A stretch of DNA of 24,000 nt from NCBI RefSeq assembly GCF_000018325.1, contig NC_009922.1:1046612-1070611 (forward strand), written 5' to 3'. The notes beneath the pieces were generated by a model. The model was not told the origin of the DNA. It saw nothing but the letters and a program-made list of their open reading frames with translations, and did no database searches. Position 1 is the first letter of the stretch, and every line of letters begins with the position of its first letter. This document shows, one piece after another, positions 4,806 to 11,846 of the stretch. The DNA is from Alkaliphilus oremlandii OhILAs (GTDB taxonomy: Bacteria > Bacillota > Clostridia > Peptostreptococcales > Natronincolaceae). The position numbers and the translations under genes are program-made.

Positions 4806-5894
4806 GTGAAAAAAAGTTCATTAGCATTACTATTAATTGTTGTTTTGATGATGTCAGTAGTTCTTACTGCTTGTGGCGGAAAGACGAACACAGGTGAAAC
4901 ACCAGAAACACCAGGAACTGAAACACCGGAAACACCTCAAGCGAACAATGGCGATTTCTTAGTTGGTCTTGTAACTGATATCGGTGGTATCGACGATAAA
5001 TCATTCAACCAAGGTACTTGGGAAGGTATTGAAAGATTTGCAAAAGAATTTGGAACAGATAAAAACTATCTTCAATCTGAAAAAGATTCAGATTATATTC
5101 CAAACCTATCTACATTTGCAGATGAGCAAGCAAGTTTAATTGTTGCTCCTGGATTCTTATTTGAAAATGCGATGAAAGAAACCGCAGCAAATTTCCCAGA
5201 GCAAAAGTTCTTAATCATCGATGCTGTAGTTGAAGCAGATAATGTAGCAAGTGCTGTATTTGCTGAGCATGAAGGATCTTTCTTAGTAGGAGTAGCAGCA
5301 GCGTTAAAAACAAAAGAAGCTGGTAAAGATACTGTAGGTTACATCGGTGGTATGGATTTTGAAGCAATTCAAAAATTCGAAGCTGGATTCGAAGCTGGTG
5401 TTTGGGCAGTAGATCCGAACATGAAAGTTGTAGTTGAATATGCAGGTGCATTTGATAATGCGCAAGCTGGTCAAGCTTTAGCAGCTAAAATGTACGATCA
5501 AGGTGCACACGTTATTTTCCACGCAGCTGGTGGTACTGGTAATGGATTAATTAAAGAAGCACAAGATAGAAGAATCAATGGCCAAGACGTATGGGCAATC
5601 GGTGTAGATAGAGACCAATACGAAGATGGTATTTATGATGGCGATAAATCAGCAGTATTAACATCAATGATTAAAAAAGTTGACGTAGCTGCTTATGAAA
5701 TTTCAAAACTTACTTTAGATGGTAAATTCCCAGGTGGAGAAACTTATCTTTTCGATTTAGCAAATGAAGGTGTTGGTATACCTGCAAAGAATCCAAACTT
5801 ATCTGATGAAATCGTAAAGGCAGCAAATGATTATATTCCACAAATTACATCTGGAAAATTAGAAGTATCTCCTGTACCATCAAGATTAAAATAG
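4806..5894 (+). CDS. BMP/Med-family ABC transporter substrate-binding lipoprotein (nucleoside-binding type, PnrA/NupN/RnsB-like)
   Basis: GTG start with an AAAGGGAGGA RBS. The signal peptide carries the lipobox L-T-A-C (Cys23, 4872-4874). The [11 protein letters not shown] motif and overall sequence are typical of basic membrane protein family SBPs. Confidence 0.9.
4896..4937 (+). repeat. Imperfect tandem 9-nt repeat GAAACACCN encoding an (E-T-P)n tether after the lipid-anchor Cys
   Basis: The copies are GAAACACCA at 4896-4904 and 4905-4913, GAAACACCG at 4920-4928 and GAAACACCT at 4929-4937, with GGAACT between the two pairs. They encode [14 protein letters not shown]. Confidence 0.85.
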
Positions 5895-5916
5895 TTTAAA
5901 TTTCATAGTATACTAT

Positions 5917-5950
5917 AAAAAAACCAAGATTTTATAGTCTTGGTTTTTTT
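5917..5950 (+). terminator. Rho-independent terminator immediately after the SBP gene
   Basis: The stem CCAAGA (5924-5929) / TCTTGG (5938-5943) encloses an 8-nt loop. It is flanked by an A7 run (5917-5923) and a T7 run (5944-5950), which can extend the stem or act as the U-tract. Confidence 0.7.
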
Positions 5951-9797: not shown

Positions 9798-10899
9798 CTT
9801 TAAGAGGTTTTTAGCAAATAAAAAAAATCATAATTTTCTTATTCCAATCATTGCTATTTTATCTGGATTTTTATTTGGCTCCATTATTATGGTTCTGACA
9901 GGATTAAATCCAAAGGATTTATTTATTTCTATTATTAGAGCTGTAAGTGGTGTGGATGTCAACAATATTGGAACGAGTAAAAAGGTTTTCAACGCGAGAT
10001 ACGTTGGGGAATATTTAGTGACAGTAATGCCGTTGGTATTAACTGGATTATCTTCTGCTTTTGCTTTTAGAACAGGTCTTTTTAACATCGGAGGCGAAGG
10101 ACAAGTATTGGTAGGTTCTTTCTTTGCAACTTATGCAGCCTTAATGTTTGATTTGCCTAGCTTTTTATTGGTACCTACAGTGATGGTGGCAGGTATGATA
10201 GGCGGTGCTATTTGGGGTTTCATCCCAGGTGTGCTCAAAGCTAAATTTAACGTAAGTGAAGTTGTTGTTACGATTATGCTAAACTACGTTGGGTTATATT
10301 CCACCAACTATTTCTTAAAACAGCTCCCAGGCAGTACCAATACACGTACTGTGGATTTTCCCACAGAAAGTCTTTTAAAGAGTGATTTTCTATCTCGTTT
10401 AACCAGTGGCTCAAGATTACATTATGGATTTATCGTTGTAATACTATCCGTTCTTGCTTTTTGGTTTATCATAGAAAAAACAACCTTTGGGTATGAATTG
10501 AAATCCGTTGGATTCAACCCATTTGCCTCTAGATATGCAGGAATGAAGGTTGAGCGAAATGCTGCGCTATCTATGACTATCGCCGGTGCATTTTCAGGGT
10601 TGGCCGGTGCGATTTTAGTAGCTGGAACCTTTGGTTATGGACGTATTTTAGCCAGCTTTGAAAACTATGGATTTGAAGGACTAGCCGTTGCCTTAGTTGG
10701 AAATAGTACAGGCTCTGGTACGGTTCTCGGTGCACTTTTATTTGGTGCATTAAAAGCAGCGCAACCAATCATGCAGGTCAATCGAATTCCTCGTGATATT
10801 GCGATTATCATTATATCTTCTATTGTAGTTTTCATTGCCATGAGAAATGGAATCAAGCTACTTCTGGAGAGAATCAAGATAAAGGAGGTTGAAAAATAA
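9790..10899 (+). CDS. ABC transporter permease (NupP/RnsC/YufP-like)
   Basis: A polytopic hydrophobic protein of 369 aa. It overlaps the ATPase stop by 8 nt, and its family and position follow the BMP-type importer layout. Confidence 0.85.
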   Translation: MSNFKRFLANKKNHNFLIPIIAILSGFLFGSIIMVLTGLNPKDLFISIIRAVSGVDVNNIGTSKKVFNARYVGEYLVTVMPLVLTGLSSAFAFRTGLFNIGGEGQVLVGSFFATYAALMFDLPSFLLVPTVMVAGMIGGAIWGFIPGVLKAKFNVSEVVVTIMLNYVGLYSTNYFLKQLPGSTNTRTVDFPTESLLKSDFLSRLTSGSRLHYGFIVVILSVLAFWFIIEKTTFGYELKSVGFNPFASRYAGMKVERNAALSMTIAGAFSGLAGAILVAGTFGYGRILASFENYGFEGLAVALVGNSTGSGTVLGALLFGALKAAQPIMQVNRIPRDIAIIIISSIVVFIAMRNGIKLLLERIKIKEVEK

Positions 10900-11846
10900 T
10901 GGATACAGTTTATTCAATGCTAGTTCTAACACTTATTTTTTCAACACCAATCATGATTGCTTCTCTCGGCGGCTTATTTTCAGAGCGAAGTGGTGTCGTT
11001 AATATCGCTCTCGATGGATTGATGATGTTTGGTGGATTTGGAGCGGCAACAGCCTTGGTTTATTTAGAGAAATCAACATCCTTAGCTCCTTGGATCGCTC
11101 TTCTTGTAGGGACCGTGGTTGGTGCGTTGGTTTCCATCATCCATGCATATTTAAGTATCGATTTAAATGCGGACCAGATCATATCCGGTACTGCAATTAA
11201 CCTATTAGCAACAGGTGCTACGATTTATTTGGCACAAATACTTTTTGGACAACAAAGAACACCGAACTTTACAGGTAGTTTTAGAAAAACTACCTATCCA
11301 GTTTTAAGTGATATTCCAGTAATTGGTGATATCTTCTTTAAAAATATCTATCCTACCGTATATGTTGCATTTATATTAATCCTTGCTGGGTGGTATCTGG
11401 TATATAAGACACCGTTTGGATTAAGGTTGAGAGCAGCAGGGGAGAACCCTCATGCAGTGGATAGTATGGGAGTCAGTGTTCGTAAAATGAGATATATTGG
11501 CGTTATCATATCCGGTGCCCTAGCAGGTCTTGGCGGTGGCATTCTAGTTCTAACACAGGATACACAGTATACTGTTGTAAGTATTAGTGGAACAGGGTTT
11601 ATAGCCTTAGCTGCTTTAGTATTCGGTAGATGGAAGCCAATGGGAATCCTTGGAGCTGGACTATTCTTTGGGTTCTCTAAAATATTCAGTATTTATTCCA
11701 ATAGCTTCTCCATGCTAAAAAAATTGCCAAACGAATTTTTCTTTGCACTACCGTATCTATTAACCATTGTGGCACTGGTAATCTTCAGTAGACAGTCTGT
11801 TGGACCGAAAGCTGCAGGAAAGTCTTACGATAAAGGGCAAAGATAA
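10899..11846 (+). CDS. ABC transporter permease (NupQ/RnsD/YufQ-like)
   Basis: A polytopic hydrophobic protein of 315 aa. It forms a TAATG stop/start overlap with the preceding permease, and an AAAGGAGG RBS lies at 10881-10888. Confidence 0.85.
   Translation: MDTVYSMLVLTLIFSTPIMIASLGGLFSERSGVVNIALDGLMMFGGFGAATALVYLEKSTSLAPWIALLVGTVVGALVSIIHAYLSIDLNADQIISGTAINLLATGATIYLAQILFGQQRTPNFTGSFRKTTYPVLSDIPVIGDIFFKNIYPTVYVAFILILAGWYLVYKTPFGLRLRAAGENPHAVDSMGVSVRKMRYIGVIISGALAGLGGGILVLTQDTQYTVVSISGTGFIALAALVFGRWKPMGILGAGLFFGFSKIFSIYSNSFSMLKKLPNEFFFALPYLLTIVALVIFSRQSVGPKAAGKSYDKGQR

Follow-up and report, generated by a model that had tools for sequence, protein, structure and literature searches.

A YjjI–YjjW glycyl-radical enzyme pair as a probable nucleoside-linked, optional module of a PnrA-type importer operon

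In Alkaliphilus oremlandii OhILAs, the genes for a YjjI-family glycyl-radical enzyme (GRE) and a YjjW-like radical-SAM activase (SAM being S-adenosylmethionine) lie between the substrate-binding protein (SBP) and ATPase genes of a PnrA-type ABC importer operon, and we have analysed this arrangement in a 24,000-nucleotide stretch of the genome (contig NC_009922.1, positions 1,046,612 to 1,070,611 of the forward strand; the whole of this stretch is referred to as the window, and positions are counted from its first letter). The explanation we favour, with a confidence of about 0.6, is that yjjI–yjjW is an optional module of a general PnrA-type nucleoside importer operon and that YjjI probably has a nucleoside-linked role (probability about 0.6–0.65), which is well supported by association. 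An original prediction made from the sequence of the window had proposed that an anaerobic radical pathway acts on an imported nucleoside or ribose-derived compound. The nucleoside link in this idea is supported because the cassette recurs across orders of bacteria, the NupC transporter replaces the ABC system in other hosts, deo genes adjoin the pair (deoCABD in Escherichia coli) and the SBP is 60% identical to PnrA; the accompanying suggestion of radical chemistry on a ribose diol is speculation.

A pattern scan with one genome per GTDB species found 353 loci with a YjjI relative, and the 80 closest to our query were analysed by calling open reading frames (ORFs) and clustering the proteins, with tblastn searches using reference proteins run separately and extra loci obtained by exact-protein look-up. 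The order SBP–yjjI–yjjW–ATPase–permease–permease was found in 16 species-level loci (the window, L002, L003, L088, L005, L075, L050, L051, L078, L091, L054, L069, L072, L059, L073 and L094) from Alkaliphilus, Petrocella, Vallitaleaceae, metagenome-assembled genomes (MAGs) of Clostridia and Eubacteriales, two Deferribacteraceae and, in the case of L094, Candidatus Xianfuyuplasma coldseepsis. These hosts represent three phylum-level lineages (Bacillota, Deferribacteraceae and, for L094, an Izemoplasma-type Mollicutes relative), and the transporter parts of their cassettes are 57–90% identical to those of the window, with the window ATPase sharing 70–90% identity with the cassette ATPases of other lineages. 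Four further loci, from the Eubacterium yurii group and a Clostridiales oral isolate, have yjjI–yjjW–ATPase–permease–permease without an adjacent SBP gene, and one further yjjI locus has a convergent BMP operon. The pair had been described as an orphan, a misleading term for what is a conserved cassette.

The same description held that the pair was inserted into a BMP operon, and this is borne out by four-gene operons without the GRE in matching synteny. We looked up four close homologues on long contigs from a homology search with the SBP, and three of these were in GRE-less operons which share their context with GRE-containing ones. In Fusibacter (L093) the order is DegV–TrxB–Bmp–ATPase–permease–permease–(xanthine/uracil permease)–rpoN, matching the DegV–...–TrxB–...grd...–Bmp–YjjI–YjjW–ATPase–permease–permease–rpoN of the window, and in L095 it is gyrB–gyrA–fumA–fumB–Bmp–ATPase–permease–permease, a context which is found with the pair in L091, L050 and L069. 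The third GRE-less operon, RecU–RNase J–x–Bmp–ATPase–permease–permease in L096, has its counterpart in the RecU–RNase J–Bmp–YjjI–rSAM–ATPase–permease–permease of Xianfuyuplasma (L094). Because GRE-less operons occur in three matching chromosomal contexts, yjjI–yjjW is an optional module, and at least three gains or losses of the whole pair have taken place exactly at the SBP/ATPase junction.

The genes for fumarate hydratase, gyrA/gyrB and tmk–holB–yaaT found upstream of some of these loci were considered as pathway partners and rejected as housekeeping synteny, the fum–gyr context also being found without the GRE. In L094, which is from a cultured organism, a pyrimidine-nucleoside (thymidine) phosphorylase gene (1–489) lies some 6.5 kb 5' of the cassette. 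It should be noted that the Fe-S protein gene cluster for which induction on nucleic acids was reported in Xianfuyuplasma (PMC8397711) lies at another locus (G4Z02_01105–01195) and provides no evidence for the cassette.

A different transporter accompanies the pair in the Pasteurellaceae, where nupC lies directly 3' of yjjW in 12 loci with no ABC system there (four from Mannheimia, two from Avibacterium, and one each from Pasteurella bettyae, P. testudinis, Lonepinella, Actinobacillus genomosp. 2, Aggregatibacter and Spirabiliibacterium). NupC (TIGR00804, 521.6 bits, cutoff 442) belongs to the CNT family of nucleoside transporters, which has no relationship to ABC systems. The run is continued after nupC by deoC–deoB–deoD in P. 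testudinis and Spirabiliibacterium (L056 and L076), and deoD follows in Aggregatibacter (L071). In E. coli K-12, yjjW–yjjI and deoCABD point away from each other, yjjI and deoC being 257 bp apart, and the original prediction had described this neighbourhood correctly. Altogether a nucleoside transporter or deo gene is found beside yjjI in 34 of the 49 loci outside a large Haemophilus parainfluenzae group, so the neighbourhood survey which had been proposed supports the association for these and at the same time shows that it is not universal, as the other 15 are without one. A thirteenth Pasteurellaceae locus retains a nupC remnant; the nupC after yjjW is split by a frameshift in Mannheimia haemolytica (L038, 12406–13591), and fragments covering about 197 of 423 residues are found in Actinobacillus capsulatus (L074, 12368–12932), which suggests that the linked transporter is decaying in some lineages. 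A Mannheimia protein near yjjI that had been clustered as DeoD is MtnN/Pfs-like, and was not counted.

The window SBP is a close relative of T. pallidum TmpC/PnrA (2FQW; E = 3.7e-118, 60.3% identity over 307 residues), for which there are crystal structures with bound inosine, adenosine and guanosine (2FQW, 2FQX and 2FQY). When compared using the roles of the nucleoside-contact residues of PnrA, BmpD and BmpA (PMC7093131, PMC13325309), in a mapping that relies on an inferred offset between the chain and PnrA numbering, the SBP conserves the aromatic sandwich (F36 and F186), F161, D27 and N37, as well as the ribose contacts D108, V237–D238 and K260. In contrast, the base-specificity loops have changed (S28 to I, D30 to G, and GSFL to GFLF in the S86–F87 loop), and the ligand preference given here is predicted from sequence. 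The loop signature is common to all of the cassette SBPs and to close SBP homologues from GRE-less operons, and as the binding site is the same with and without the GRE, the transporter gives no clue to a special ligand; it looks like the ordinary nucleoside importer of the lineage and not a specialised one. The window SBP has the lipoprotein anchor, sandwich and ribose contacts of the T. pallidum and Streptococcus pneumoniae PnrA proteins, and the T. pallidum PnrA operon shares with the window operon a duplicated ATPase and two BPD_transp_2 permeases. We know of no characterised PnrA operon that contains a GRE. Assignment to the putative B6 ABC transporter models (NF047927–NF047930) was rejected, as all four proteins score far below cutoff (SBP 84 against 400 bits, ATPase 478 against 670, and permeases 126 against 400 and 164 against 465).

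The window YjjI matches TIGR04040 (711.6 bits, cutoff 498.3) and PF11230 (711 bits) over their full lengths (positions 1–497 of 497 and 1–485 of 485, respectively), and the profile search which had been suggested as a check therefore bears out its family assignment. The predicted 509-residue GRE with a C-terminal LIRVTGY loop is also found as described (DLIRVTGYL, in which the radical glycine is G464). Among 29–30 diverse members of the family there is no variation in R461-V-T-G464-Y or S229-C230-Y-N232, nor in E60, R68, Y69, H155, N182, R245, E299, H372, Q374, D383 and R391, and C230 is the only cysteine invariant family-wide and the putative thiyl cysteine. When aligned by hhalign with E. 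coli PflB, S229–C230 are opposite C418–C419 and RVTGY is opposite RVSGY. The family is small, with 429 matches among 1.84 billion 50%-identity representatives and some 20 full-length divergent members, and is present in human and animal commensals and pathogens. Its main branch is highly conserved (65% identity between Clostridia and Pasteurellaceae), while the window and E. coli YjjI proteins are only 38% identical, and the nearest named relatives of the window protein are from Alkaliphilus (81% identity with Alkaliphilus sp. MSJ-5 and 73% with A. metalliredigens). The E. coli K-12 proteins YjjI (b4380) and YjjW (b4379) share with the window pair the YjjI family, an overlapping activase gene after the GRE gene, nucleoside-related neighbours and an anaerobic context, and differ in that yjjW–yjjI is divergent from deo in E. 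coli whereas the window pair is embedded in an ABC importer operon.

A search of PDB sequences with the YjjI profile found no relative and no solved YjjI structure, and we examined the fold using an AlphaFold (AF2) model built from 29 diverse sequences (mean predicted local distance difference test score, pLDDT, 94; predicted template-modelling score, pTM, 0.92). In this model YjjI has the ten-stranded barrel fold of the GREs with the Gly and Cys loops. The top 50 Foldseek matches in the PDB are all GREs, either NrdD or PFL-type (PFL, pyruvate formate-lyase), and ranks 1–29 are all class III ribonucleotide reductases (RNRs) from phage T4, Prevotella copri, Streptococcus thermophilus and Thermotoga maritima (best match E = 1.2e-16, template-modelling (TM) score 0.71–0.72 by query and 0.68 by target, root-mean-square deviation (rmsd) 4.3–4.5 Å). 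PFL-type GREs appear only from rank 30 (TM score by target 0.44–0.49, rmsd 7.7–9.8 Å), and a weaker first model gave the same order. YjjI is like NrdD in having a compact barrel of about 500–600 residues, a C-terminal RVxGY loop and a small PflA-like activase, and the ribose in the NrdD substrate class is a further likeness to a nucleoside-linked YjjI. It differs in that the window protein has no match to an NrdD family model in NCBIfam or Pfam, no apparent Zn-ribbon cysteine cluster and no ATP cone, and the second active-site cysteine appears not to be conserved (the NC motif of NrdD aligns to a gap in the YjjI profile, in a region of low alignment confidence). The relation to NrdD at the profile level is weak, with a probability of 91% for E. 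coli NrdD (E = 1.2e-6) and 84% for E. coli PflB (E = 7e-6). YjjI thus forms a GRE branch of its own, compact like NrdD in its architecture, and is not an RNR.

The predicted radical-SAM activase has the CNLNCIYC and GGE motifs described for it (within QGCNLNCIYC and VSGGEAT), with a CX3CX2C cluster and matches to PF04055 and PF13353. Its naming as YjjW stands in so far as TIGR04041 is the best match, ahead of PflA at 130 bits, and the motifs are those of a radical-SAM protein, but the score of 201.5 bits is below the cutoff of 250.2. This shortfall arises because the E. coli and Clostridium forms have, immediately behind the radical-SAM cluster, an insert of about 40 residues with two CX2CX2CX3C motifs which the window protein is missing; over the rest of its length, the window protein shares 53% identity with the Clostridium long form. 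Among 37 clustered activases, 29 have neither of these motifs, seven (including E. coli YjjW) have both and one has a single motif, and the short form is a common subtype, more so than the long. A comparison of L001, L004, L005, L060, L075, L079, L082 and L089–L091 with the window and most other loci places the long form, with its two ferredoxin-type motifs, at about 280–296 residues and the short form, which has none, at about 242–265. ABC cassettes contain either form, the long one in L005, L075 and L091 and the short one in the window, L050 and L059, and form does not therefore track genomic context.

A YjjW relative lies directly 3' of yjjI in all 49 loci outside the H. parainfluenzae group, with that in L074 a partial match. 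Within the group (L006–L012, L014–L037, L039–L043, L049, L052, L063 and L067) yjjI is intact, encodes a protein 66% identical to the window YjjI and has yczE and recQ as neighbours, and no YjjW-like activase is found within the flanks examined (10 kb on one side and about 6.4 kb on the other). The YjjI of this group either has its activase encoded elsewhere or is served by another activase.

A GRE activase cleaves SAM to form a glycyl radical, which generates a thiyl radical on a cysteine, and this abstracts a hydrogen atom from the substrate. Under anoxia, the window activase would install the radical on G464 and this would be relayed to C230, with YjjI then acting on the nucleoside brought in by the importer, or on its pentose or pentose phosphate once these are set free. 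A redox-neutral radical reaction accords better with a single conserved cysteine than net reduction does, subject to the low confidence of the alignment in the region of the second, and the reaction would most likely be a redox-neutral radical elimination on the ribosyl moiety. In one model the 3'-H would be abstracted and the 2'-OH lost, on the pattern of diol dehydratase or of the first half-reaction of class III RNR; in another the 2'-H would be abstracted and the C1' substituent eliminated in the manner of CutC. The product would then enter the deo route or glycolysis. That YjjI catalyses a radical nucleoside or pentose transformation for which no enzyme has been described, such as a redox-neutral 2'-dehydration or a CutC-like cleavage of the C–N glycosidic bond, is a tentative proposal to which we give clearly less than even odds, and any one specific chemistry would be improbable at best.

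GRE-plus-activase pairs are encoded with the uptake system for their substrate elsewhere, as in the CutC/CutD choline trimethylamine (TMA)-lyase clusters, and the likeness of these to the window operon is in the logic of co-encoding radical enzyme, activase and substrate supply. They differ in the enzyme, as the CutC-type GREs are PFL-type proteins of more than 800 residues with a Cys-x-Glu motif and YjjI has S-C-Y-N and a smaller, different architecture. Anaerobic use fits what is known of YjjI, because yjjI is directly activated by FNR in E. coli (PMC3688515) and induced anaerobically in Yersinia intermedia (PMC3792023).

A number of points weigh against a nucleoside-linked role. All of the functional evidence is guilt by association. 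The 15 of 49 loci with no nucleoside gene nearby include stand-alone pairs in Clostridium acidisoli, Natronincola, Fonticella and an Erysipelotrichaceae locus, three Clostridia MAGs with the pair beside tmk–holB, and Glaesserella, among others, and the large H. parainfluenzae group is also without a nucleoside neighbour. The counts are not of independent events and come from the 80 best of the 353 loci, which is the part of the family nearest to the query, and the cassette lineages are likewise not statistically independent, given shared descent or block transfer. GRE-less and GRE-containing operons have the same SBP signature, with no pointer in it to a special ligand, and the hairpin between the SBP gene and yjjI (Table 1) may allow separate transcription of the SBP gene. 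In profile comparison, YjjI lies as far from NrdD as from PflB, and the one conserved cysteine together with the gap opposite the second argue against an RNR-type net reduction.

Some of these points would also be explained if there were no functional link at all and an independent anaerobic pair, with an unrelated substrate, had landed in the importer operon and now travels with it, which we consider unlikely. About 30% of the sampled lineages have a stand-alone yjjI–yjjW with unrelated neighbours, the cassette may have spread as a block and so inflated its recurrence, a terminator-like hairpin stands between the SBP gene and the pair, and expression clustering linked E. coli yjjI to nitrate and nitrogen genes (PMC3228777). 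This explanation has to contend with the three mechanistically unrelated nucleoside sets that flank the pair in distant hosts (the PnrA-type ABC system, the CNT transporter NupC and deoCABD/deoCBD), with the identical SBP/ATPase junction used in at least three chromosomal contexts, and with the translational coupling of yjjI–yjjW to the ATPase and permease genes. The structural matches, all the top ones of which are NrdD, and the match of some family members to the Pfam NRDD model (P0111 and L094) could alternatively indicate a nucleoside- or nucleotide-level reductase, a stripped-down relative of class III RNR making deoxyribonucleosides or deoxyribose phosphates, either for salvage or to feed DeoC as an electron-consuming fermentation branch. 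The recurrent catabolic neighbour deoC is specific for deoxyribose-5-phosphate, and formate is abundant where yjjI is FNR-activated in E. coli, both of which would suit such an enzyme. We nonetheless think a reductase quite unlikely, as C230 is the sole family-wide invariant cysteine with a gap at the position of the second catalytic cysteine of NrdD, the Zn-ribbon cluster and ATP cone appear to be missing, the window protein reaches no NrdD model, and the sequence similarity to PflB is equally strong.

Were YjjI to act on the nucleobase, in an anaerobic radical step of purine or pyrimidine degradation for which the importer supplies the base, the recurrent neighbours in the Proteobacteria would be expected among base-catabolic genes, but they are the sugar-side deoC and deoB, and no xanthine dehydrogenase or dihydropyrimidinase-type neighbour recurs among the surveyed loci. 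Glycine reductase is the end of clostridial purine fermentation, and its operon lies immediately before the cassette both in the window and in the Alkaliphilus relatives; this adjacency is limited, however, to one genus-level lineage. A xanthine/uracil permease follows the GRE-less Fusibacter operon, and the cassette carrier Ca. Xianfuyuplasma degrades nucleic acids and up-regulates purine catabolism (PMC8397711), whereas the fold nearest to that predicted for YjjI belongs to an enzyme that acts on ribose. On balance we regard a nucleobase substrate as very unlikely.

To our knowledge, YjjI is the one E. coli K-12 GRE still without an assigned reaction. We found no functional study in the openly searchable literature on YjjI, YjjW, DUF3029, PF11230 or TIGR04040 (subscription-only papers were outside this scope, and prior publication is possible), where the only role proposed is one in nitrogen metabolism for E. 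coli yjjI, suggested by an expression-clustering study (PMC3228777). Nor did the same openly searchable literature, where it concerns glycyl radical enzymes and nucleosides, yield a nucleoside-acting GRE, and a June 2026 review of the GRE superfamily mentions neither YjjI nor a nucleoside-acting GRE (PMC13450708). Both protein families are already catalogued and the same cassette is present in genomes which have been public for years, and it is the functional lead, the nucleoside link of YjjI, that appears to be new. The optional module at a fixed junction, the exchange of the ABC system for NupC and the deo neighbours together narrow the search for a substrate to nucleosides and pentose derivatives, and so provide a long-unassigned family with a short list of candidates that can be screened. 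If a nucleoside-linked role for YjjI is correct, it would represent a new radical reaction in the scavenging of nucleic acids in anoxic habitats. If, in addition, the tentative proposal of a transformation for which no enzyme has been described were true, there would be a new anaerobic route of nucleoside use common to Pasteurellaceae of the gut and mouth, Enterobacteria, Clostridia, Deferribacteres and DNA degraders of the Izemoplasma type, and a third functional branch of the GREs that is structurally closest to class III RNR.

The layout of the locus was determined by calling ORFs on the window and assigning families by NCBIfam and Pfam profile searches, and all of the large ORFs are on the + strand. 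From the 5' end, the window contains grdB, grdC and grdD (glycine reductase) followed by the BMP-family SBP gene and the rest of the cassette (Table 1), and after rpoN by cggR–gap–pgk–tpi–gpmI–eno, secG, a Na+-pyrophosphatase gene and the start of the gene for RNase R. The gene order from grd to cggR is kept in the complete A. metalliredigens QYMF genome and in three metagenomic contigs from the same organism as the window. The gene set, coordinates and junction overlaps of the original prediction agree with our ORF calls and reading of the sequence. The ATG at 7514 is preceded by an AAGGG ribosome-binding site (RBS) and gives the activase gene an 11-nt overlap with the 3' end of yjjI (an alternative in-frame start at 7472 gives the longest ORF, of 256 residues, but homologues favour the short overlap); the 19-nt gap from yjjW to the ATPase gene holds a GGAG RBS, the ATPase and permease 1 genes overlap by 8 nt, and the two permease genes overlap as TAATG. 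The five genes from yjjI through permease 2 are tightly coupled, with the SBP gene set apart by the hairpin.

Table 1. Features of the importer operon and its borders, in window coordinates (dG, folding free energy; bits, profile score).
Feature	Position	Strand	Evidence or description
Hairpin and U-run ending the grdB–grdC–grdD operon	4420–4465	+	dG -17.6, z = -5.6; marks the left-hand border of the unit
Candidate extended -10 promoter element	4733–4741	+	TGCTATAAT, read from the sequence, about 65 nt 5' of the SBP start
PnrA-type (BMP family) lipoprotein SBP	4806–5894	+	362 aa; GTG start; lipobox LTAC; PF02608, 275 bits
Terminator-like or attenuator hairpin 3' of the SBP gene	5916–5951	+	16-bp stem; A-run on one side and U-run on the other
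YjjI-family GRE	5995–7524	+	509 aa; TIGR04040, PF11230
Short-form YjjW-like radical-SAM activase	7514–8242	+	242 aa from ATG 7514; best NCBIfam match TIGR04041
ABC ATPase (CUT2 type)	8262–9797	+	511 aa; two fused nucleotide-binding domains; two PF00005 domains
ABC permease 1 (BPD_transp_2)	9790–10899	+	369 aa; PF02653
ABC permease 2 (BPD_transp_2)	10899–11846	+	315 aa; PF02653
Intrinsic terminator ending the operon, before rpoN	11859–11896	+	17-bp stem; dG -21.3, z = -8.9; then U-run
rpoN	start 12061	+	3' of the operon terminator

The terminator predicted at 11859 is present as a hairpin with a U-run, but the claim that none occurs before it is wrong, as a hairpin with a dG of -17.1 kcal/mol (z = -6.4, with none of 200 shuffles as stable) lies between the SBP gene and yjjI, and for the SBP gene the idea of one translationally coupled unit without an internal terminator consequently fails. 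With its gene set apart in this way, the binding protein would be expected to be produced in excess. The hairpin after grdD and the extended -10 element suggest that the SBP gene has its own promoter, and a TATAAT-type element is found at the equivalent position when the upstream regions of two Alkaliphilus relatives are aligned; the alignment shows a promoter-like AT-rich block and no clear operator. yjjI may be expressed by read-through or from a weak internal promoter. A simple scanner found no excess of promoters in the window and did not report TGCTATAAT, as it required a -35 match; it also missed the hairpins at 5916 and 11859, and the regions were folded instead. A scan of the window with Rfam at gathering thresholds found the grdB selenocysteine insertion sequence (SECIS) alone, and a permissive scan of 4380–6010 found nothing credible; no known riboswitch or leader controls the operon.

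The post-SBP hairpin has a palindromic core, CCAAGA-N8-TCTTGG (5924–5943), with one match in the window where none would be expected, and this is also found at the SBP/yjjI junction in L002, L003, L005, L050, L051, L069, L072, L075, L078, L088 and L091. The stem is conserved in sequence and not in structure alone, as CCAAGA(C)–loop–(G)TCTTGG, occurs once per locus with loops of differing length, and is kept across families whose proteins are only about 65% identical. In the GRE-less L095 the stem is a variant, CCAAGGC...GCCTTGG, and L093 and L094 have unrelated terminator stems. A sequence-conserved terminator stem is unusual, and it might be an attenuator recognised by a protein or an RNA. 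We note that L005 (7260–7385) and L075 (4460–4585) also have a second, near-perfect inverted repeat of about 60 nt, ATCATCATG...CATGATGACCATTG..., between the SBP hairpin and yjjI; it is confined to these two related loci, and could be a mobile-element scar or a regulatory structure.

Control by sigma-54 was considered and rejected, as a search for the -24/-12 pattern gave 10 matches in the window against 6.25 expected, with none 5' of the cassette on the + strand, and the downstream rpoN is therefore not obviously connected with the operon. One match with a single mismatch, TGGCATATAATTTGCA, lies on the - strand between the operon terminator and rpoN (11922–11937), opposite to all of the genes, and given the numbers of matches found and expected, it is probably due to chance. 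At the 5' end of the window, grdB (209–1516) is a selenoprotein gene, with an in-frame TGA at 1256–1258 and the SECIS directly after it at 1259–1296 (RF01990, 64.8 bits), and the frame stays open past the TGA as far as 1516, a stretch which matches the last 84 residues of GrdB.

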